From: a phage | Direction: 5' to 3' (one strand) | Sequence record: OZ556245.1 | DNA length: 64,000 nucleotides | In this document: in pieces, positions 2,095-38,903 of the stretch | Numbering within the stretch: position 1 is the first letter of the stretch | Layout of the letters: each line of letters begins with the position of its first letter | Notes under the pieces: generated by a model | Databases searched by the model: none | Seen by the model: the letters and a program-made list of their open reading frames with translations, nothing else | Told to the model about the DNA's origin: nothing | Position numbers and translations under genes: made by a program

Positions 2095-2356
2095 TTAGAC
2101 TTTCCTTTTTACCGCTGAGATAAGCGTTATATACTTTAAGAGTGCCGTAATAAATTCGGTCATTTTCATCTAAAGACTCACGGTCAAGTTCATCGAGTTC
2201 CTTTTTATCCATGACTATAACATCATTGCAGTAAAGAAACCCAAGTTTTTCGTGACCAAACTCAAATTTATTGCAGTACACAATATTAGCGTGATGATTT
2301 CCGTGTAGATTAATCTCTTTTATGTCGGAATCACCGATATTCATACAATAAATCAT
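2027..2356 (-). CDS. hypothetical protein (109 aa)
   Basis: ORF track; overlaps denB 5' end. Confidence 0.45.
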   Translation of the reverse strand: MIYCMNIGDSDIKEINLHGNHHANIVYCNKFEFGHEKLGFLYCNDVIVMDKKELDELDRESLDENDRIYYGTLKVYNAYLSGKKESLNAENESGFTETISDSDIYPIEQ

Positions 2357-2374
2357 AATTTTTCCTTAAAACAA

Positions 2375-2392
2375 AAGGGCCGAAGCCCCTTA
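2375..2392 (-). terminator. UUCG-tetraloop hairpin, terminator-like
   Basis: GGGGCUUCGGCCC stem-loop followed by U-rich tract on transcript. Confidence 0.5.
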
Positions 2393-2394
2393 TT

Positions 2395-2589
2395 TTATTT
2401 GAATTGTGCAATTCTTTTTTCTAAACAATCTGCGTAAGATTTCATTGAGATGAATTGTGAAAGCAGTAATTCTTGCTCAACTTCATTAATCATTAGAAAC
2501 TTTGTGCTTTCTAAAAATTTGCTCAGTGCATTAATTTTGAGCATTAATTGATCGTATTCTTCTTTTACTCGTGCTTGATAACCTAACAT
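2395..2589 (-). CDS. hypothetical small helical protein (64 aa)
   Basis: ORF track; SD AAGGAAAA upstream; flanked by UUCG hairpins. Confidence 0.5.
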   Translation of the reverse strand: MLGYQARVKEEYDQLMLKINALSKFLESTKFLMINEVEQELLLSQFISMKSYADCLEKRIAQFK

Positions 2590-2602
2590 AATTTTCCTTA
2601 GT

Positions 2603-2620
2603 TAAGGGCCGAAGCCCTTA
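2603..2620 (-). terminator. UUCG-tetraloop hairpin at rIIB stop
   Basis: AAGGGCUUCGGCCCUU overlapping rIIB stop codon. Confidence 0.45.
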
Positions 2621-3556
2621 TTTAAATTGTTCAGTAACGTCTTCAACTACTTCGTATTGGCAGGTACGCATTTTAGCATCGTTGTAATCAATCGGAATTG
2701 ATACTACATCACGCGGATGCACTTTAACTTTTACAACTCGACTGGTTGAACTGCCAAAGTGACGAATATAAGATTTAGAACACACATGCAGACCACGAGA
2801 ACAAGTTTGTGTATCATCGTCATTCACACGAGTACGTGGCATTTTAACTACTTTACCAGGACTGTTATCAAAAGTATTTGAATGACAGTCAAAGTAATTG
2901 CTGCGAACTACTTTCCAAGCATAGAAGTAGCCATCTTCTGTAATTTCAATATCGTTTGCTACCAAGAAATCAAAGAGTCGAGATACCGCTTTTTGGCTTG
3001 GGTTTTCCAACAGATTTTCCAAGAACGGAAAATAAAATTCAAAGTTTTCGCCTTTTTCCATCGAATCGAGAATACGATCAACTAAACCAGACCGCAATTC
3101 AATATTTTGATAGAACAAGCTTCCACCTTCAATTCGAACATCACCGGAAATATATTTTTCAACGGCGCGACGAACATTAATTTTTTGTGCCGCTTCTTCC
3201 AATTTATCTGCAACAAGCAGATTAAGAATTTCCTGGAAGTTTGAATGAGTATTAGGAGTTGCGTTATAAGTTACACCATCAACAGTAATTGAAATGAATT
3301 TTTTAGATGCATTCCAAATAATGTCAGATTTAGCAACTGGAGCGATAGTTGTATCGCTATTAACTTTAACCGTAATGTCACCGCTAATGGTAACTTTGGA
3401 ACGCTCAGCTTCTTCAGCATTTTTCAAAACACGACGGATTGTGTCAACCGATACACCTTGCCAATCAGCCAATTCCTGTTGGGTGTAATTACCACTTGAA
3501 TACAGTTTGACAATTTCAGCTTGTTCGTTTTTGGTCAGGCATTTAATATTGTACAT
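2618..3556 (-). CDS. rIIB: rIIB protein (membrane-associated rapid-lysis / exclusion protein)
   Basis: 312 aa, same length as T4 rIIB, immediately downstream of rIIA. Confidence 0.85.
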   Translation of the reverse strand: MYNIKCLTKNEQAEIVKLYSSGNYTQQELADWQGVSVDTIRRVLKNAEEAERSKVTISGDITVKVNSDTTIAPVAKSDIIWNASKKFISITVDGVTYNATPNTHSNFQEILNLLVADKLEEAAQKINVRRAVEKYISGDVRIEGGSLFYQNIELRSGLVDRILDSMEKGENFEFYFPFLENLLENPSQKAVSRLFDFLVANDIEITEDGYFYAWKVVRSNYFDCHSNTFDNSPGKVVKMPRTRVNDDDTQTCSRGLHVCSKSYIRHFGSSTSRVVKVKVHPRDVVSIPIDYNDAKMRTCQYEVVEDVTEQFK

Positions 3557-3567
3557 AATTTTCCTTA

Positions 3568-5745
3568 TTAGGCCGCAAGGGCCTTCATAGTTTTAGCGAT
3601 TTGGGAAACTTCATCATCACTTAAAGAGTTGCGATAACCGATGAAGTCGGAAACAATACGGAATTTCTTGGTAAACTCAGCAACCATTTTATCACTGTTT
3701 TTTGAAGCATTATTTGATAATACATCAAAAAGATTAGTTACTGTCCAGATGTCATGACCGATGGTACCTTTTCCACCGTTGAAATATATACCCTGCAATG
3801 AACTAACCATATTACCAAGGCGAGTATATTCTTCAGAAACTTCATCTACACTGAAGTACTTCATCATAAAATCTAACTCAGGATACTTGATAATTTTATC
3901 AATATATCGTTTAGCTGAACTTGAATAACCTACATACTTATCATAATCTACAGCATCAAAAGCATCTACATATAAATCACGTAGAGTTTCAAAAATACAT
4001 TGGCACTGACCGAGTTCTTTTACCTTTTTCTGCAAAAGCGGACGAATAACATAAAATTCATTAATGCCAATAAGATTAGCCATACGAGTCAAAATACTCG
4101 TAGATGGATGACAAAGCGATGTAGTACCATCCATAGAGAAAATATCAGAACGATGCATGTATGCTACATAACCAGTAATTTCATCTGCTTCTGATGTGAG
4201 TGTAAACAGTTCCTCTTTTTCCCAGCGTCCGTCTTTAATTTCAAACTTAAATGCAGTAGCAGCTTTAGGACGAGGAGCTTTACTTTTAACTACCTTCGGA
4301 ATATAACTTTTAACTAAAGCTTCAATTTCTGACAAATAATGAATGTTAACTTCATCACTTTCAAACATCGCAATAATATCAGGAAGTAAATCAATCTGCG
4401 ATTCTACTTCCGGGTTAATAAACAGAAGACGCTCATTATGATGAATATTTAAAGTGTTATTAAATTCACTATCATCTAACGCATGTGCTAATCCACGGAC
4501 AATATTAACACGATTTTTAATATCATCAATAACGATATTAATTTTTGTTGTATTAATACCGAACAGACGATAGCTTGATGCAACGGCTGAAGTTTCATGG
4601 CTTTGCTTAATGCGTTTCAGTCGAGGGTCAAGATTTACTTCATACACAACCCCTGCATTACATAACTTACTATCAGGTTCAAACATGCTCTGCATCTTCT
4701 TATATGACAAATTTTTAGTCGTGAATTTGACTGAATTACTAATCATATAATCTCGAGCAGAATACCCCATCTTCATCAATTCGCGATATGTGTGACGAGG
4801 AGATGTAGATTCTTTAAATCGTTTTACATCTTCATTAAATGCTTGCTCACTAAGTTCTTTAACTCGTTCAATAATATTTTTACGAGTACGATCATCCAGT
4901 GAAAGAGCCTCGCGAGATGGAGCAATATCAAGTGAACCCATTGGAAACTTAATGTAATTCACTTCATTACGAATGCTTAGCCAGTTACGCTCTCTAATAA
5001 CACCATCAATAGGATAAACAATACCGCCATAGATGGCATACAATCCACCACGATCAGGCCAATATCTTTCTGGATTTACGCCATAGTAGTCATCAAAATC
5101 CGGAAAATAATCAATTTCACGGTCAAGACCATTGATGATAGCCAAATCTTTGAATGGCCGCATGATATAAGAAACTTCATAAGCAAAGTTTCTAAAGTCT
5201 TTTTCTTCAACTGGAACTACGATTTCAATACCAGTTTTATCATCTGGGCCCATTTCTTTTACAAATGTAGGTTTAATTTGTGGACCATCGCCATCCATAT
5301 AAGCTACATAACCACGAATTTCGCCTTTATGATACGAAGTAATACTAAACGTATCAGTATAACTAAATGGAGATTTAGAACCTAAACCAAATCCGCCAAT
5401 GAAATCGTTGGATTCGGCTTTAGATGAACTGAAGTATGAATTATACAGACCAGGAGAATTATCATCACCTTGAATATCAAAATCGCTCATACCCGGACCA
5501 AAATCTCGGCAAACAAATCGCGGATCTAATCGTCCTGGAACTTGAATGATAAATTTTTCATGATTTCCATTGAGAGCATGGGCGTCAATCATGTTGGTAA
5601 TCAATTCACGGACTACTGCGCGAATCTTGTTTGTATACAAATCAGATGACAGAATTTTAAATACTTTAGGAGATGCTGTGATGCTAAATGCTTTTGATTT
5701 AGAACCATTACCAAGAATTGTTTCTTTTTCAGTGGTGATAATCAT
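3568..5745 (-). CDS. rIIA: rIIA protein with N-terminal GHKL-type ATPase fold
   Basis: 725 aa as T4 rIIA; Bergerat N-box ELITNMIDA and DFGPGM G1 box near N-terminus. Confidence 0.9.
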
Positions 5746-7902: not shown

Positions 7903-8170
7903 ATTTAAAACGGATAGTCGAATCCTTGAAGAATAGACCAGAACACACGGTTCCTTCTACTTTCTGCCCAGTAGGTCCAATAGCACGAAATCCAGTATGT
8001 TGAAAATCATTTTCAGAGCAACCGAACCAGTTGTATCCAGTGATTTCAATATTAGTAAAACCACTTGAAGACAAAACTTTGGTTGCATTATCAGCATCAG
8101 TACATCCTGCTAAAGACACTGCTAATACTAATGCTGCGATAGAACGATTAATATATTTCATAGTTTTCAC
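7901..8170 (-). CDS. small lipoprotein (89 aa)
   Basis: signal peptide with lipobox LAGC. Confidence 0.55.
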   Translation of the reverse strand: MKTMKYINRSIAALVLAVSLAGCTDADNATKVLSSSGFTNIEITGYNWFGCSENDFQHTGFRAIGPTGQKVEGTVCSGLFFKDSTIRFK

Positions 8171-23856: not shown

Positions 23857-24219
23857 TTAAAAGAATTTAAATTTTTTCTTTGACCTTTTATTAAATGCAT
23901 CTTGTAGTTGCATTGTAATACATTTTTCTACATGAGGAGCTAACTCAGCTTTTCTTTCTTGGTCAAGAACAGCAAAGTCCATTACGACTTTTCCATCAAC
24001 CCAATCTAATTTTGTCACATACACAATGTGTGTAGAACCATCTTCTAGTTTAATGACAATCTCCTGGATAACATTTTCCATGGCAGATTTAATTATCTTA
24101 AGAGATTCATTAAAAAGACGTTCTTTTCTTTCTTCTTCCCCCTCCGAAGAGGGGGATTCATCGATAATTTCTAGATCTAAATCTAAATCATCTTTATTCA
24201 TTAAATTCTTCCATATCAC
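23857..24219 (-). CDS. hypothetical acidic protein (about 120 aa), T4 gene 40 position
   Basis: ORF track; 5' end overlaps uvsX 3' end so start probably internal. Confidence 0.5.
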   Translation of the reverse strand: MIWKNLMNKDDLDLDLEIIDESPSSEGEEERKERLFNESLKIIKSAMENVIQEIVIKLEDGSTHIVYVTKLDWVDGKVVMDFAVLDQERKAELAPHVEKCITMQLQDAFNKRSKKKFKFF

Positions 24220-25375
24220 TTAACTGATCTAGGTCAGTTTCTAAATCAGCTGCTGATTTACTTTTGCTTTCTGGAGATTTAAATTTTTCAACCTTTGAGT
24301 TAATCAATTCATCAACTTCAGCTTCAACAATTTCATTACTATCAATAGCACCTAACTGATAAGCACGTTTAATAGCGTCTCGGAATGGTTGATGCTTAAA
24401 TAAAGGACCCCAGAATGTAGTGCAGTTGGTATCTTTTGCACGCCAAGATTTTTCTTCTCGAATCATCTCGCCAGTTTCTTCGTCAAGAAATTCACGAGCA
24501 TACCAGCCATTTTTAGGTTTTACCACAAATCCTAATTCAAGAGCCATATCTAACAATCCAGAATAAGGATCGATACCACCGTCAAATTTAACATCAATAA
24601 AGAATTTACTTTTTTCTTTAACGGTACGAGATTTTTCTACATTTAGAACAAATTGATACCCCTGAAGATCAGAACCATCTTTAATCTGGCGCTTACCGAT
24701 AATGAATACAGTATCAGCCGAATACATTACGCCTGTACCACCTGTCATCACGGTTTTACTGAACATTTCAATTGTTTCAATTGTATGGTTAACCGCAACG
24801 CATGGAATGTTTTTAATACTAAAATAAGGAGTAACAATACGGAATAATGACTTCAGTGATTTAGCACGAGTCATATCTGCCACAGATTTTTCATTCAAGG
24901 CATCTTCCGTTTCTTTCTTAGAAGCCATATTACCGATTGAGTCGATGAATACAATAACTTTTTCACCACGCTCAATAGCTTCAAGCTGATTCACCATATC
25001 AATTTTCAGCTGTTCAACTGACTGAATTGGTGTATGAATTACTCGTTCCGGGTCAACTCCCATGGATCGCAAATAAGCTGGAGTAATACCAAATTCGCTA
25101 TCATAAAATAGACATACCGCGTCAGGATATTTGTTCAAATACGCCGCAACCATAGTCAAAGACATATTTGATTTAAAGTGTTTAGAAGGACCTGCAAAAA
25201 TGGTTAAACCAGACTGCATTCCACCATCAATCGCACCTGAAATAGCGATATTAAGCATTGGGATTTTTGTACGGATTACATCCTTTTCATTAAAGAATTT
25301 AGATGTAGTCAGTTCAGCAGTCATTTTAGAAGTGGAAGCTTTAATCAAACGGGATTTTAAATCTGCAATAGACAT
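24194..25375 (-). CDS. uvsX: UvsX recombinase (RecA/Rad51 family)
   Basis: 393 aa; Walker A GPSKHFKS; acidic C-terminal tail. Confidence 0.9.
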   Translation of the reverse strand: MSIADLKSRLIKASTSKMTAELTTSKFFNEKDVIRTKIPMLNIAISGAIDGGMQSGLTIFAGPSKHFKSNMSLTMVAAYLNKYPDAVCLFYDSEFGITPAYLRSMGVDPERVIHTPIQSVEQLKIDMVNQLEAIERGEKVIVFIDSIGNMASKKETEDALNEKSVADMTRAKSLKSLFRIVTPYFSIKNIPCVAVNHTIETIEMFSKTVMTGGTGVMYSADTVFIIGKRQIKDGSDLQGYQFVLNVEKSRTVKEKSKFFIDVKFDGGIDPYSGLLDMALELGFVVKPKNGWYAREFLDEETGEMIREEKSWRAKDTNCTTFWGPLFKHQPFRDAIKRAYQLGAIDSNEIVEAEVDELINSKVEKFKSPESKSKSAADLETDLDQLSDMEEFNE

Positions 25376-25452
25376 TCATTTTTTCCATAGGCATCATTAT
25401 ATTTTCCTCACTGGTTAAAGATAGAGTAATTATAACACAATAAATTTAGGCA

Positions 25453-26301
25453 TTAATCAACTGCTATTGGATGAATAGCATTAAACTTATGAAACGCTTC
25501 TGATTTTTCTTTGCGCGAAACACACATGCGAAGAACCTTTAATGGCTCGTCTTCTTCACCCAACGATTTTCTCTTTTCAATATTCGATGTTTTCCAACGA
25601 GCTTGCTCTGGAAACTCTCTATTGATTTGCTCAAGAGCTCTATTATGTTTTGAATTACTACGAATTGAACTACATCCGCCAGGAGCCTGTGCTTTTCCAG
25701 ACACAACTAGATATTTGAACAGGGCCAAATGCGGATAACCTTGATTAATTAAATTGAGAAATGCATACATATCTTCGCATAAATCAATTTTTCCATACCC
25801 AATTTGTTCTGTCGTGAGTTTTCCGAGGTCATACCAAGTATTCGTGAATCCATATGAATTTTCACGATAATTACCCCAAGATGAAGTAATTTTAAAAATT
25901 GGTAAACGAGCATGACCATGATAATACCCACAATCCATGGCATCTTCAACGTATTGAATCAATTCATAGAACTGTTCACGAGTTAACTGATTAATTTTAT
26001 CTACGCAGCGACGATCATCTTTCTTTCGCATTGAACTCATACGAATAGTAGTATCATCATCAATCATCCAAATTCGTTGACCTGCATACATATCAGTAAT
26101 TGCTTTACGAGTACCAGCAATTCCATTAACATCATCAGGAATAGTTATAATTTTGGCTCTAGACCCGTAAGCGTCATAATAAGCTTTTTCTTCGTGTTCA
26201 CGTACTACAATATGCGGTTCATAATCAGATGGAAACATATCAAGGGCAGAAACTGCCCCTACGCGTTGATAGCTTGGAATTACGAATTGAATCATTTCCA
26301 C
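25453..26301 (-). CDS. DXD-motif glycosyltransferase at the beta-gt locus (candidate hmC-glucose modifying enzyme)
   Basis: 282 aa; WMIDDDTT DXD motif; sits between uvsX and gene 42 where T4 has beta-glucosyltransferase (351 aa). Confidence 0.6.
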   Translation of the reverse strand: MEMIQFVIPSYQRVGAVSALDMFPSDYEPHIVVREHEEKAYYDAYGSRAKIITIPDDVNGIAGTRKAITDMYAGQRIWMIDDDTTIRMSSMRKKDDRRCVDKINQLTREQFYELIQYVEDAMDCGYYHGHARLPIFKITSSWGNYRENSYGFTNTWYDLGKLTTEQIGYGKIDLCEDMYAFLNLINQGYPHLALFKYLVVSGKAQAPGGCSSIRSNSKHNRALEQINREFPEQARWKTSNIEKRKSLGEEDEPLKVLRMCVSRKEKSEAFHKFNAIHPIAVD

Positions 26302-27032
26302 TCACCGTTATAATCTTTTTTCGCAATATGAGTTTCGCCAGTTTTCCACCAATGGTCAACCAAATAAAAATGACGGGAATACACATGAAGGCTTCCGACA
26401 TTCCATATAATGGAACCTGCTTTATACTGACGAGTTGAATCACCTGCATTCAAATCAGATACTAATTTATCTAGTACGTATTTTTGCCATGCATAATCAT
26501 TACGGAATCCGAAGACCACGTCATTTGAACGCATGCTTACTACTGCATTGACTTTCTTATCACGAATCAGGTACTGTACTGTATTCGTACACATGAAATC
26601 TGACATACCGTCTTTATTGTAGTCAAACTGCATGGATGGACGAGTATAAATCATGATACCACGTCGAGAATCAGGATTTTGACCAAGTTCAGCTAAACAC
26701 ATATCATACTGGGCATAGTTATCTTCTGACCAGATGGCCCAACCATAATTCGAGTTAATTTCGCCTTTAGAAGATGCTACCTGCTGCCAAATCTTCGGTG
26801 TTTCACCCGGAATATCTTTAACAAACAAACTTTTAGATTTATACCATTCAAGTTCATGTTGAATGTATTCATCATTAAGAGCGCCAAAAATAAACGGTTC
26901 ATCTGCTACAAATGATGCACCAATAATTTCAATAGTTTTAACACCAGTTTTATCAACTACGAAATCTTTTTCCTTTAATGCAAGCCCCAAATGAAGACGG
27001 ATTTCTTCAACTGTCATAGAGTCACTAATCAT
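26292..27032 (-). CDS. 42: dCMP hydroxymethylase
   Basis: 246 aa as T4 gp42; position between glycosyltransferase and imm. Confidence 0.85.
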   Translation of the reverse strand: MISDSMTVEEIRLHLGLALKEKDFVVDKTGVKTIEIIGASFVADEPFIFGALNDEYIQHELEWYKSKSLFVKDIPGETPKIWQQVASSKGEINSNYGWAIWSEDNYAQYDMCLAELGQNPDSRRGIMIYTRPSMQFDYNKDGMSDFMCTNTVQYLIRDKKVNAVVSMRSNDVVFGFRNDYAWQKYVLDKLVSDLNAGDSTRQYKAGSIIWNVGSLHVYSRHFYLVDHWWKTGETHIAKKDYNGEWK

Positions 27033-27039
27033 TTAAACC

Positions 27040-27189
27040 TCAATTGATACATTCATATTTAACTTGTAACAGTAATAAACCCCAACCTATAATAAGTGTC
27101 GGAATCATAAGAGGAACTGTTACGCTATAGTATATACTTATTATAATCATCAAGATTAAAAGCAATACTGCTAAAATTTTGCTTTTCAT
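27040..27189 (-). CDS. small membrane protein (about 49 aa)
   Basis: hand-translated MKSKILAVLLLILMIII...; ATGA overlap with imm stop; missing from track. Confidence 0.35.
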   Translation of the reverse strand: MKSKILAVLLLILMIIISIYYSVTVPLMIPTLIIGWGLLLLQVKYECIN

Positions 27190-27437
27190 TCCTTCTCTCT
27201 GATGATAATTACTTGGTTTTGCTGTGCAGATTTTTTAGTTTCACCCGCAATTGACCAAATAAATGTAATAAACCAACCAATGATTGACCAGTTAAACAGT
27301 AAAGATGTGAAAAAGATTCCTACTGTCGATTTTGACCCACGCATCAAGGCGATGAACCACGGAAGCATGTATATAATAATAGCCAACACGCCTGAAACTA
27401 AAACCATAAAAATTGAACCTGCTACTAAAGTTTCCAT
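27186..27437 (-). CDS. imm: immunity (superinfection exclusion) membrane protein Imm
   Basis: 83 aa, two hydrophobic helices, next to gene 42. Confidence 0.8.
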   Translation of the reverse strand: METLVAGSIFMVLVSGVLAIIIYMLPWFIALMRGSKSTVGIFFTSLLFNWSIIGWFITFIWSIAGETKKSAQQNQVIIIREKE

Positions 27438-27835: not shown

Positions 27836-28093
27836 TCAAATACAAGTAGTAATTACTCCAGTAGTGCTTACACAGGTATTACCTAATTGAACACCAAGCG
27901 TTCCATTAGTATTCATATGAAGATTATCATCAATTTTTGTTGATACTTTACCATTCATGTGAATAACAGTATTAGATTCAATCACATTCTGAGTGTCATT
28001 TTCAATATCAATAAATGGAACAGCTGCTAATGCAACTAGAACAACTGCTAATGCAACTAAACACGCTGCTAAACAACCATAAACAATTTTCAT
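27836..28093 (-). CDS. small secreted/membrane-anchored protein (85 aa)
   Basis: ORF track 27836..28282 trimmed to ATG after conserved leader; N-terminal hydrophobic segment. Confidence 0.5.
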   Translation of the reverse strand: MKIVYGCLAACLVALAVVLVALAAVPFIDIENDTQNVIESNTVIHMNGKVSTKIDDNLHMNTNGTLGVQLGNTCVSTTGVITTCI

Positions 28094-28123
28094 TTTATTC
28101 TCCAAATCCGTATCAGTTGATAG

Positions 28124-28157
28124 TTGTATAGTACCACGGAAGAACAGGGATGTAAAT
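28124..28157 (-). promoter_or_regulatory. early promoter with conserved leader (cassette copy)
   Basis: ATTTAC ... GGTACTATAC followed by leader ACAACTATCAACTGATACGGATTTGGAGAAT. Confidence 0.5.
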
Positions 28158-28243
28158 AGTTTTGTGAAAAAATTTTTAATGAATTTACAGGACCTAGAAT
28201 CATCTATTTTTATTAAGTATAGATTTATATTACTTGTATGAAA

Positions 28244-28262
28244 AAGGGACCCGGAGGTCCCT
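28244..28262 (-). terminator. intrinsic terminator after gene 43
   Basis: AGGGACCUCCGGGUCCCU hairpin followed by UUUUUCAU. Confidence 0.6.
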
Positions 28263-28274
28263 AGATTTATTCTA

Positions 28275-30971
28275 TCAGCCAAACAGGAAGTCTAACGAAG
28301 CTTTTTCTTCATAGTCCATACCCGCCGATTCACACATGCCCGCAAGCGGTTTAACAAACGATTTTTGGAACAAAGTTGAGTAGTCAATCCAAGACAGTAC
28401 ATCAGAACGAATTTCTTTTGGAAGTTCTGTGCCTGATGGCCAAGCAATGCACTTGTCACCAAATGGATTTCCTTCACGTAATGGAAGAACCATTACCTTA
28501 TTTCCATCCAAAATTGGAGCTACACCTAAACCGCTAACAGCTCGACGATAAGTTAGCACACCACGAATATGGAACGGACATTTAAATCCTGGCCAACCTT
28601 TATCATCATATTTCGCTATATCGTTCGCAGTTTTTACTTCAGCAATAACTTTATAGTCAAGTTGACGATATTCTTTCTCAAAGTTCTTGTAGTATTCTTG
28701 GACAGACTCTTCGCCTTCCTGAAGAATACGACGAATACTTTCTTCGAGAGCTTCTTGTACTGCTTTTGGTGTTGAACTCTGCTGAGTTTCCATACCCATG
28801 ATTTTTAGATGTGGTTCAGCAAATCGCTTATCTTCCATATCATAAACGTTCAGAGCATAACGTTTTTTCGCTTTCCAAAATCCACCAACACCCTTTGAAC
28901 CAAGCGGAGGACAAGAAATAGCTTCACGGTCCATATGCATCAGATGCTCGCGGTTATTCATATAATCACATAACTCACGATATGCAACATCAATCATAGG
29001 TTCCATCTTTTTCTTACCAAACTGATTCATGAATTCAACTAAATCATTTTGTTCTTTAAAGCGATCAAGACCTACTTTTTCAATTACTTTATCTACACAA
29101 ACATATACCGAATCAGTATCACCTGCTGCGATGAAATCTTCACCATTAGTTCCACACACTTTATTTAGATATTCATTAATTTTGCGAGCAATCCACTGAA
29201 TACCGACTTGACCGAAAATTGTGATAGCAGTAGCATTTCGCAAATCATAGTAACGGAAATGAATATTACCAAGAGCGCCATAAAGACTGTTAATAAGAAT
29301 TTTACGGTTCAGCTGATTTGTGTTAGCAAGTGTAGCAGCTTTTTCACATTCTTCAATCAGACTGTTAAGAACAGATTCGGTGTAATTCGATAATTCGTTT
29401 AAGAAATCATCACTGAACTTAACATATCGTTCAACTTCTGGTTTAGTTGAGCAAGACCCTGCACCTTTCATAATAATCTTTTTAATAGATTCGGCATTCA
29501 TTTCTTCCGCGAACATTTTCTTTTTCCAATCTTTACGCTGGAAAAATACTTTAGCGATTTCCTTTGGAATGATACCTTCTTGGTGCTTATCATACATCCA
29601 TCCATTCGGAGAGCAAGAATATTCATCACTTGGCTTAGGAGCTGTTCCTGCGATATATTCATGAATTGGATGAACTTTAAACTGCCCGCGAATAGTCTCA
29701 GGACTAATGTTAACCTGACGAATAATGCTAGGATACAGAGACGTCAAGTCAAAACTCATAATGTATCGACGAGCAATCGGTTTAGGTTCAAACACAAATG
29801 CACCTGGAAAACTCTGTTTAACGTGCGAACCTTGTTGAGGAATAACCTTATGTTCACCTTTCAGTGAGTTAAAAATAATAGCGTCCCAAGTTTTAATAGG
29901 ACTCATTACACCAGAAAAAGGCATTTTAGCGTAATAAGACATACTTAAAACTAGATCGATAAACCCACGAATTTTATCAATTGCTTGAACTGATTCTACG
30001 TCAATGATGTTATAACTAATGTATCGTTGATGATTAGTCTCACGAAGTTTATTAATAGGACCATCGTACGGCAATTTACCTTTTTTGGTTTCATGTTGAG
30101 CAACTGATTCCAAAGAGAACGATGGCAAATTAGTAAATGCGAATTTCTTGTACAAATCTAAATAATCAAGAATAGATACGCCATCAATAGAATAAATTTC
30201 TTTACTACCGTACATATTTTGAATTAGTTTAGATTTTACTCGACCGATTGGAGAGAAGCGTTTCATACTACGTTCACCGAGAACCATTTTAACACGATTC
30301 ATGATATACGGAACGTCAAATCCCTCAATATTCCAACCAGTAAAAATAGCAGGTCGTTTCTGTTCCCAGAGATTGATATATTCCATGAGCATATCACGCT
30401 CATTATCGAATGGCATATAAATTACTCGGTCAAGAATTTCTTGAGGAACTTCATCACCACCTTCACAGTCAAGCTTAGCAGCTAACTTTGCATCCCATTT
30501 TGATACTGAACCGTACATTGAATTCAACAAATCAAAGACGTAAAAACGATCATCAATTGAATCATAATGAGTGATAGCATCAATTTCATATTCTGCTTTC
30601 ATTGGGTCAGGAAATTTATCACCAGTAACCTCAATGTCGCAGTTAGCTACACGAACAAATTTTCGGTCATAAACAATTTCTGAACCATATGTATCACTGA
30701 TATAAGCGAGTTTAAAATCGTTCATACCGAGAGCTTCGAGACCGATGTCTTCCATTCGCTTCATCCAGTCTCGTGCATCTTTCATTGATGGAAATTTTTG
30801 AGGAGCACAATTTTTACCATAAATGTCTTTGTATTTTGACTCTTCCTTACAATGCCTAAACATAGTCGGAAGATATTCTACTTCACGGGTACGTTCCTTT
30901 CCATTTTCATCAATATAACGTTCAACAATATTATTTCCGACTGTTTCGATAGAGATATAAAATTCTTTCAT
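28275..30971 (-). CDS. 43: DNA polymerase gp43 (family B, with 3'-5' exonuclease)
   Basis: 898 aa as T4 gp43; exo motif CDIEV; polymerase motif AAGDTDSVY. Confidence 0.95.
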   Translation of the reverse strand: MKEFYISIETVGNNIVERYIDENGKERTREVEYLPTMFRHCKEESKYKDIYGKNCAPQKFPSMKDARDWMKRMEDIGLEALGMNDFKLAYISDTYGSEIVYDRKFVRVANCDIEVTGDKFPDPMKAEYEIDAITHYDSIDDRFYVFDLLNSMYGSVSKWDAKLAAKLDCEGGDEVPQEILDRVIYMPFDNERDMLMEYINLWEQKRPAIFTGWNIEGFDVPYIMNRVKMVLGERSMKRFSPIGRVKSKLIQNMYGSKEIYSIDGVSILDYLDLYKKFAFTNLPSFSLESVAQHETKKGKLPYDGPINKLRETNHQRYISYNIIDVESVQAIDKIRGFIDLVLSMSYYAKMPFSGVMSPIKTWDAIIFNSLKGEHKVIPQQGSHVKQSFPGAFVFEPKPIARRYIMSFDLTSLYPSIIRQVNISPETIRGQFKVHPIHEYIAGTAPKPSDEYSCSPNGWMYDKHQEGIIPKEIAKVFFQRKDWKKKMFAEEMNAESIKKIIMKGAGSCSTKPEVERYVKFSDDFLNELSNYTESVLNSLIEECEKAATLANTNQLNRKILINSLYGALGNIHFRYYDLRNATAITIFGQVGIQWIARKINEYLNKVCGTNGEDFIAAGDTDSVYVCVDKVIEKVGLDRFKEQNDLVEFMNQFGKKKMEPMIDVAYRELCDYMNNREHLMHMDREAISCPPLGSKGVGGFWKAKKRYALNVYDMEDKRFAEPHLKIMGMETQQSSTPKAVQEALEESIRRILQEGEESVQEYYKNFEKEYRQLDYKVIAEVKTANDIAKYDDKGWPGFKCPFHIRGVLTYRRAVSGLGVAPILDGNKVMVLPLREGNPFGDKCIAWPSGTELPKEIRSDVLSWIDYSTLFQKSFVKPLAGMCESAGMDYEEKASLDFLFG

Positions 30972-37684: not shown

Positions 37685-37702
37685 AAAGGGCCGAAGCCCT
37701 TT
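37685..37702 (-). terminator. UUCG-tetraloop hairpin after alpha-gt
   Basis: AAAGGGCUUCGGCCCUUU. Confidence 0.55.
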
Positions 37703-38903
37703 ATTTTGTAATAATGTCAAACTGTTCTTTAAAGCAGAAGCTTGAATCTTGATGCTGATACAAAAATTCATAAGCTTTTTCGCGTTCACGGTCATAAAGA
37801 GCTCGGTCAGATGACAGTTCTTTAATACGTTCAAATGTTGATTCCATGTCATTTTCATCAAACCAAACGATACCGCTATCATGAGAAATTAACGGAGTAT
37901 TATCAACACGGAATTTTAAATTTTCGCCAGTAGATTTCCAAAATACCGGAATTGTTCCACACGCACCAAGCTCGAGATGAGTATATTCTAAAGAACGTTG
38001 TAGATATTTTTTATCCAACTTACTCAGCTGATAACCAAATCCGGATTTACTCATGCGTTCAAGCATTTCGCTATTTACATAACGGTCGAGAATTTGCGTC
38101 GGCAAATTAGGAGCAATTTTAATTTGGTCTACTTGATGAAGACGATAATATTCGTATGGAATTCCTTTTTCTTTAATAGGAATGAACGCTGGAGAACGTT
38201 CCAGACCTTCCATAATAGTACTTAATCCCGCAGGTTTAAGATGTTTTTCGTGAAAATCAAACATCTGATAAAAACCTTTCCATGTAGTCGTACGACCGAT
38301 CCAACGGTTGACATTCATATTAATTTCAGAAACATCTTTCCAGTAGGTTGATCGAACCTTCGCAATATCCATAGGAGGCTGAAAGTTGTATACAGTCGGT
38401 GCTTCTTCAATATCATCAAACAGAGAAACTGTTTCTGGATACCATTCTTTCATCAAAACTTTATTAAAATCGCCATTATCAGAATGACTAAAAATAACAT
38501 CAGCTCGACGAACAGTTTCTTCTAATCCCAAATTTCGGCGCAAAGAAAGAGAAGAATGGTCATGTTGATAAACTACAACACGAACCGAAGGTTTAATGTT
38601 ATCAATAATTTTTTTATAGTTATTAATAGTGTCTTCTTCGACTGAAGTAGCAGGAACTGAATTGATAATTAGAATATCACAATCATTTACCAGCTTAAGT
38701 GTTTTATCGTATTCTTTTGCCAATAAAACCGGAATTGAAAATGATTTATAATCATGCGCACAATTACGGGTAAATGATTTATCTTTAGCATAAACCAAAG
38801 TTACTTCATGACCATTTTTAATAAACCAATCACGTTGCTCGAGAGAAAATTTAGTTACGCCGCAACCTTCAAGACCTCGAGCCATAAAAATGCATACTTT
38901 CAT
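37701..38903 (-). CDS. agt: DNA alpha-glucosyltransferase
   Basis: 400 aa as T4 alpha-gt; between gene 47 and gene 55. Confidence 0.8.
   Translation of the reverse strand: MKVCIFMARGLEGCGVTKFSLEQRDWFIKNGHEVTLVYAKDKSFTRNCAHDYKSFSIPVLLAKEYDKTLKLVNDCDILIINSVPATSVEEDTINNYKKIIDNIKPSVRVVVYQHDHSSLSLRRNLGLEETVRRADVIFSHSDNGDFNKVLMKEWYPETVSLFDDIEEAPTVYNFQPPMDIAKVRSTYWKDVSEINMNVNRWIGRTTTWKGFYQMFDFHEKHLKPAGLSTIMEGLERSPAFIPIKEKGIPYEYYRLHQVDQIKIAPNLPTQILDRYVNSEMLERMSKSGFGYQLSKLDKKYLQRSLEYTHLELGACGTIPVFWKSTGENLKFRVDNTPLISHDSGIVWFDENDMESTFERIKELSSDRALYDREREKAYEFLYQHQDSSFCFKEQFDIITK

Follow-up and report, generated by a model that had tools for sequence, protein, structure and literature searches.

The Locus between uvsX and Gene 42

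We analyzed a 64,000-nucleotide stretch of phage DNA (sequence record OZ556245.1; hereafter, the window), in which a minus-strand open reading frame occupies positions 25453..26301. A preliminary description had placed this frame between uvsX and gene 42, and the PHROG matches that identify the neighboring genes agree with that placement (Table 1). It had also given the product as 282 amino acids, which is the length read from the GTG at 26301 in a program-made list of open reading frames. The frame stands, but its length needs correction by two codons. Gene 42 ends GAG TGG AAA TGA, and the ATG at 26295 overlaps its stop codon as ATGA; the curated records of T2, PP01, TB37, and PBM-1 all begin the gene at the equivalent ATG, which gives a protein of 280 amino acids. 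From these sequence comparisons, the real start is likely to be the ATG at 26295 and not the GTG at 26301.

The gene that precedes this frame is annotated as gp42 dCMP hydroxymethylase at the syntenic position in T2, T6, and PP01. On the other side, the spacer to uvsX is 77 nt long and contains neither segA nor a remnant of beta-gt, as judged from the coordinates of the open reading frames and from tblastn. In the T4 record, segA and the 351-residue beta-gt lie between uvsX and gene 42, and the preliminary description was thus right about the gene that T4 carries at the equivalent position. The gene order in the window (61 to 41, 40, uvsX, 42, imm, and 43) agrees with that of T2, T6, and PP01. 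The 12 kb around the frame shares 98.5% identity with Escherichia phages PBM-1 and EPIMAM01 and 96–97% identity with many other Tequatrovirus genomes. On this similarity, the source of the window is a T2/T6-like Tequatrovirus.

Three further observations concern the surrounding sequence. A promoter scan of 25300..27300 returned 12 sites, where chance would yield 8.5 ± 3.6, and so gave no expression signal. A hairpin with a 9-bp stem, TAGGGGCAGTTTCTGCCCTTG, falls within codons 12–18 of the frame and was flagged as terminator-like in a scan that found two such elements where 1.2 were expected; T2, T6, and PP01 have the same letters here, and the hairpin is probably nothing more than coding sequence. 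An open reading frame of 148 codons from a TTG lies between imm.1 and gene 43. PHROG 4189 matches it over residues 64–148 only, and the product annotated at this position in related records has about 78–85 amino acids; the C-terminal half is probably the true gene.

Table 1. Positions of the genes and sequence features discussed in the text
Feature	Position in the window	Strand	Evidence or remark
uvsX, downstream flank	24194..25375	minus	PHROG 97, E = 1e-109
ba-gt (TAGT) coding sequence	25453..26295	minus	280 aa plus stop; ATG at 26295; PHROG 842, PF20691, identity to T2
E174-D175, conserved acidic pair, candidate catalytic base	25771..25776	minus	alignments A2 and A3
D79-D80-D81 (GAT GAT GAT), DXD-type motif	26053..26061	minus	within WMIDDDTT, 26070..26047
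Hairpin within ba-gt, probably coding sequence	26261..26241	minus	9-bp stem; flagged as terminator-like
Gene 42, dCMP hydroxymethylase	26292..27032	minus	PHROG 160 (thymidylate synthase family), E = 5e-67
Open reading frame between imm.1 and gene 43	27836..28282	minus	148 aa from TTG; PHROG 4189
alpha-gt	37701..38903	minus	PHROG 2888, E = 8e-222; 395/400 identical to T2 alpha-gt

Identity of the Gene

The preliminary description had pointed to a transferase of the T2/T6 type here instead of beta-gt. Comparison with the T2, T6, and T4 proteins supported this. The window protein is identical to the T2 beta-glucosyl-HMC-alpha-glucosyltransferase at 275 of 280 residues in an ungapped alignment, and it differs from the T6 protein at six of 261 comparable residues. 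The corresponding enzymes of PP01, TB37, CP, and Some differ from it by two, three, four, and five residues, respectively. The synteny is that of T2, T6, and PP01. The protein also gave significant full-length matches to both of the relevant family profiles: PHROG 842 (beta-glucosyl-HMC-alpha-glucosyltransferase) matched with E = 3.5e-89 over profile positions 3–269 of 270, and Pfam PF20691 (TET-associated glycosyltransferase, TAGT) matched with 38.7 bits, against a gathering cutoff of 27.5, over profile positions 2–205 of 205. These matches make the protein a member of the TAGT family, and near-identity over the full length, together with the position between gene 42 and uvsX, makes it an ortholog of the T2 and T6 enzymes. 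TAGT was the sole Pfam family found for all 12 homologues when they were searched at E values up to 1, and Glycos_transf_2 matched none of the 12 even at E = 1. The supply of the acceptor is also provided for, as alpha-gt and gene 42 are both present in the window.

T4 beta-gt showed no similarity to the window protein: the best BLASTP match had an E value of 3.3 and covered 8 residues, which rules out a homologue of T4 beta-gt, and the two proteins do not align over their full length. When the 64-kb window was searched with T4 beta-gt by tblastn, the best E value was 0.15, and we found no beta-gt-like sequence within the window. This result and the short spacer rule out a decayed beta-gt remnant beside the gene. 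The window represents 64 kb of a genome of roughly 167 kb, and in related genera where TAGT and beta-gt both occur, the two genes adjoin each other at this locus. We also reject a pseudogene, in view of the open frame and the intact invariant residues.

We conclude that the gene very probably encodes a beta-glucosyl-HMC-alpha-glucosyltransferase of the T2/T6 type (ba-gt, also g-gt, ggt, or TAGT), which makes gentiobiosyl-hmC with UDP-glucose as the donor. Our analysis provided the sequence identity, the gene order, the predicted fold, and the conserved residues on which this conclusion is based, and it found alpha-gt but no beta-gt in the window; the activity and the DNA composition of the relatives come from the literature. 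The gene is already known, has been experimentally characterized in relatives, and lies in its usual place, and the finding is correct but ordinary. The original cloning of ba-gt was reportedly described by Winkler and Rueger in Nucleic Acids Research in 1993.

Predicted Fold and Conserved Residues

A search of a large protein database returned 12 clusters at 29–99% identity, most of which were tagged PF20691. Conservation was assessed in two alignments, A2 and A3, the latter of 11 sequences. D79 and D80 show no variation in A2 and A3, whose homologues extend down to 22–31% identity, and D81, which is invariant in A3, is replaced (by Ser) only in a 22%-identical homologue from a Stenotrophomonas phage. 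Both residues of the acidic pair E174-D175 are invariant in A2; in A3, D175 is invariant and E174 is at least 90% conserved. R11 is likewise conserved in both alignments.

Searches of the PDB returned unrelated proteins only, with best E values of 0.77 for the single protein and 0.64 for a 12-sequence profile. An AlphaFold2 model made from the single sequence was unusable (pLDDT 41). A second model, for which A3 was the input, was adequate (pLDDT 77.5, pTM 0.81), with low-confidence loops at residues 131–148 and 202–210. The best structural matches of this model were GT-A glycosyltransferases, and the proteins matched included WrtF, AvpGT, cellulose synthase, chondroitin synthases, GlfT2, TarP, TarS, SpsA, and dolichol-phosphate mannose synthase. 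The predicted model has a GT-A fold, and the conserved DDD motif follows directly on the end of strand beta-4 (residues 74–78).

A GT-A-type DXD motif within WMIDDDTT had been pointed out in the preliminary description. A lone DXD triplet could easily occur by chance, but because this one is conserved and is placed after the strand formed by residues 74–78 of the model, we regard its assignment as sound. The T6 TAGT has been described as a GT-A-fold protein that is sister to GT2 (PMC13216743), a conclusion that the model of the window protein independently reproduces at the level of prediction. According to this model, ba-gt is a GT2-type transferase that consists of one small domain with a GT-A fold.

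Proposed Pathway and Mechanism

The primary reports on the glucosylation of T2 and T6 DNA are those of Lehman and Pratt in 1960, Kornberg et al. in 1961, and Kuno and Lehman in 1962. The DNA of T2 and T6 contains alpha-glucosyl-hmC and beta-1,6-glucosyl-alpha-glucosyl (gentiobiosyl) hmC, and it is ba-gt that attaches the second glucose to the alpha-glucosylated base (PMC6024577; PMC13216743). A T6 mutant that lacks ba-gt has been described as containing alpha-glucosyl-hmC only (PMC11078745; bioRxiv 10.64898/2026.02.25.707755).

In the window phage, gp42 would produce hydroxymethyl-dCMP, and hmC would be incorporated during replication. The product of alpha-gt would add an alpha-linked glucose to hmC in DNA, and ba-gt would transfer a second glucose from UDP-glucose, in beta linkage, to the 6-OH of the first, which would yield gentiobiosyl-hmC. 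Because a beta linkage is to be formed from UDP-alpha-glucose, an inverting mechanism is required, and a GT2-like GT-A enzyme would invert by means of a DXD-bound metal and a carboxylate base. The DDD motif (D79–D81) most likely holds a divalent metal and the diphosphate of UDP-glucose, with D79 and D81 as the putative metal site, and by analogy with GT2 enzymes the catalytic base is most likely supplied by E174/D175.

Expected DNA Modification and Variation among Alleles

Among the Durham Tequatrovirus phages, TB37, CP, and Some carry alpha-GT and TAGT without beta-GT, and their DNA was found by HPLC/MS to contain about two-thirds alpha-gentiobiosyl-hmC, about one-third hmC, and no beta-glucosyl-hmC (PMC13390438). 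As the enzymes of these phages are only three to five residues away from that of the window, their DNA composition indirectly supports the earlier proposal that the hmC decoration here is probably not T4-like. Because the window lacks beta-gt, we expect the virion DNA to contain gentiobiosyl-hmC and some alpha-glucosyl-hmC but no beta-glucosyl-hmC. Bare hmC would make up an inferred share of about 25–35%.

The extent of diglucosylation differs among relatives. Gentiobiosyl-hmC accounts for about 5% in T2 and about 72% in T6 (PMC6024577; PMC11078745), and the enzymes of these two phages are about 97–98% identical. In the Tequatrovirus phages EL, BGP, and Geo, hmC, alpha-glucosyl-hmC, and gentiobiosyl-hmC occur at 1:2:2 (PMC13390438). 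With values this far apart, sequence alone does not predict the proportion of diglucosylation. The same enzyme might have a low, T2-like output in the window phage, whose DNA would then contain mostly alpha-monoglucosyl-hmC with a few percent gentiobiosyl-hmC and would behave as alpha-glucosylated DNA. The window protein is as near to the T2 enzyme (five differences) as to the T6 enzyme (six), and the intermediate composition of EL, BGP, and Geo fits such a range of outputs. Nevertheless, we consider this outcome unlikely: two of the T2 substitutions, R11H and P251S, are private to T2 and absent here, and R11 is kept by all other family members examined. Because the window allele lacks these two substitutions, we favor, with limited confidence, a T6/TB37-like degree of diglucosylation, a preference drawn from the sequence of the allele.

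R11 lies directly after the first beta-strand (VIPSYQR). Among the homologues examined, down to 22–31% identity (A2 and A3), T2 alone departs from it: R11H occurs, together with P251S, in all three independent T2 records. We suggest only tentatively that the ba-gt allele, through a hypomorphic R11H in T2, might determine the extent of diglucosylation. If R11H is hypomorphic, it would account for a 60-year-old difference between T2 and T6, and the window phage, with R11 and P251, would be predicted to be of the high-gentiobiosyl T6/TB37 type. This lead concerns the TAGT family and nothing unique to the window, and it is mildly new.

It is very improbable that the window enzyme has a different specificity, such as the use of another sugar donor or the primary glycosylation of bare hmC. 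More distant TAGT homologues are found with beta-GT or by themselves, and specificity varies among them (PMC13216743); tandem TAGT and beta-gt genes are found in Karamvirus, Gelderlandvirus, and Muldoonvirus. However, the window enzyme is 98–99% identical to those of phages with measured gentiobiosyl-hmC and has the same alpha-gt partner, which makes a switch very unlikely, and the residues that separate it from the TB37 enzyme (S23, K92, and I101) are conservative differences at nonconserved positions in A2 and A3. Equally hard to credit is a gene that is present but nonfunctional, whether as a decaying copy or through a laboratory-stock lesion: T6 records with an amber codon at codon 10 or with loss of an Asp from DDD indicate that alteration of the gene is not lethal to the phage, but in the window the frame is full length, Q10, R11, DDD, E174/D175, and all other family-invariant residues are intact, and the gene is still coupled to gene 42 through ATGA.

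The two T6 stocks contain two different variants in ba-gt. In MH550421, there is an in-frame TAG at codon 10 (7951..7953 of the record piece; TAT TAG CGT, as opposed to TAT CAA CGC in the window and PP01), and because of this TAG the gene is annotated from Met20 as 261 amino acids. The TAG is odd for a phage with 72% gentiobiosyl-hmC, and it could be a stock mutation or be overcome by suppression or reinitiation. In AP018814 (piece 2135..2974), codons 10 and 11 are intact, and one GAT of the (GAT)3 repeat is lost, which leaves WMIDDTT and a protein of 279 amino acids; the (GAT)3 repeat that encodes DDD may be prone to slippage.

Expected Sensitivity to Defense Systems

A change in sensitivity to glucose-specific restriction systems had been predicted from the presence of this gene. 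Published work on relatives supports the prediction for Brig1 and BapA, but not for GmrSD and BrxU, which still target gentiobiosyl DNA. Brig1 does not degrade gentiobiosyl DNA in vitro, yet T6 is still restricted in vivo, and in the authors' model Brig1 acts prior to addition of the second glucose (PMC11078745). T6 from which ba-gt has been deleted is more sensitive to Brig1, and the DNA of the mutant is a substrate for Brig1 and BapA, whereas wild-type T6 DNA is not (PMC11078745; bioRxiv 10.64898/2026.02.25.707755). The BapA deglucosylase is unable to strip glucose from gentiobiosyl-hmC (bioRxiv 10.64898/2026.02.25.707755). GmrSD targets both glucosyl stereoisomers as well as gentiobiosyl-hmC (PMC13216743), and all 12 of the modified Durham phages examined, the gentiobiosyl-rich ones included, were susceptible to BrxU (PMC13390438).

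Packaged DNA of the window phage should therefore resist excision by Brig1 in vitro and deglucosylation by BapA better than alpha-monoglucosylated DNA does, and the phage should stay sensitive to enzymes of the GmrSD and BrxU types. The expected fraction of bare hmC would also expose the DNA to hmC-directed systems (bioRxiv 10.64898/2026.02.25.707755), and the phage should be sensitive to systems that attack this base. For the window itself, the value of these results lies in annotation and in the prediction of a phenotype only.

Comparison with Known Systems

We found ba-gt at a nucleotide identity of at least 90% in 480 phage records and, by tblastn, in 691 records, about 200 of which are from Klebsiella, Enterobacter, Salmonella, and Citrobacter phages at 60–80% identity. 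T4-type beta-gt was found in 29 records, at least ten of which are T4 itself. A 2026 paper in NAR came to the same view: in most genomes TAGT is accompanied by alpha-GT or beta-GT, and the T4-like pair of alpha-GT and beta-GT occurs in only 6 of 753 (PMC13216743). Within Tequatrovirus, carriage of TAGT is the usual condition, from which T4 departs. The textbook reference is atypical, and unlikeness to T4 at this locus is therefore no sign of rarity.

The labels given to these genes in sequence records are variable. In RB55 (KM607002) and RB59 (KM607003), a gene that is 100% identical to T4 beta-gt is labeled beta-glucosyl-HMC-alpha-glucosyl-transferase, and in Ge15 (PP359696) the TAGT gene is labeled alpha-glucosyl-transferase. 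Many records list TAGT as a hypothetical protein, and thymidylate synthase is a frequent label for gene 42.

The TAGT proteins of Karamvirus, Gelderlandvirus, Muldoonvirus, and Klebsiella phages are 47–66% identical to the window protein, and their genes likewise lie directly after gene 42. Karamvirus, Gelderlandvirus, and Muldoonvirus differ from the window in having gene 42, TAGT, beta-gt, and uvsX in tandem. We found TAGT and beta-gt side by side in Enterobacter phage vB_Ent31 (Karamvirus), Salmonella phage Melville (Gelderlandvirus), and Serratia phage Muldoon; in the coordinates of the extracted record pieces, the tandems span 3001..4910, 3007..4910, and 3001..4949. Because beta-gt is part of the tandem, the acceptor of these TAGTs is presumably beta-glucosyl-hmC. 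We infer that the apparent replacement of one gene by the other in T-even phages plausibly reflects selective retention: T4 and T2/T6 may descend from a locus with both TAGT and beta-gt, of which each retained a single gene.

Cellular GT2 enzymes with a GT-A fold (TarP, TarS, SpsA, and the catalytic domain of cellulose synthase) are only 7–16% identical in sequence to the window protein. Their acceptors are lipid, teichoic acid, or a growing glycan, whereas the acceptor of ba-gt is a sugar on duplex DNA.

T4 beta-gt occupies the same genomic slot as ba-gt, uses UDP-glucose as the donor, and forms a beta linkage on phage DNA (PMC13216743). The two enzymes differ in fold, which is GT-B in T4 beta-gt and GT-A (predicted) in the window protein, and in acceptor, which is bare hmC for the former and alpha-glucosyl-hmC for the latter. 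PDB entry 1JG7 is the structure of T4 beta-gt. T4 beta-gt is an analogue at the same locus and not a homologue.

The T2 and T6 enzymes share with the window protein a length of 280 residues, the slot between gene 42 and uvsX, an alpha-gt partner, and about 98% identity to each, and the ATGA overlap with gene 42 is as in T2. The T2 enzyme differs from that of the window by R11H, S23T, K92R, I101V, and P251S, and the T6 enzyme differs by S23T, Y40N, D55G, K92R, I101V, and R106H. The window allele thus carries neither the T2-private H11 and S251 nor the stock-specific lesions of T6.
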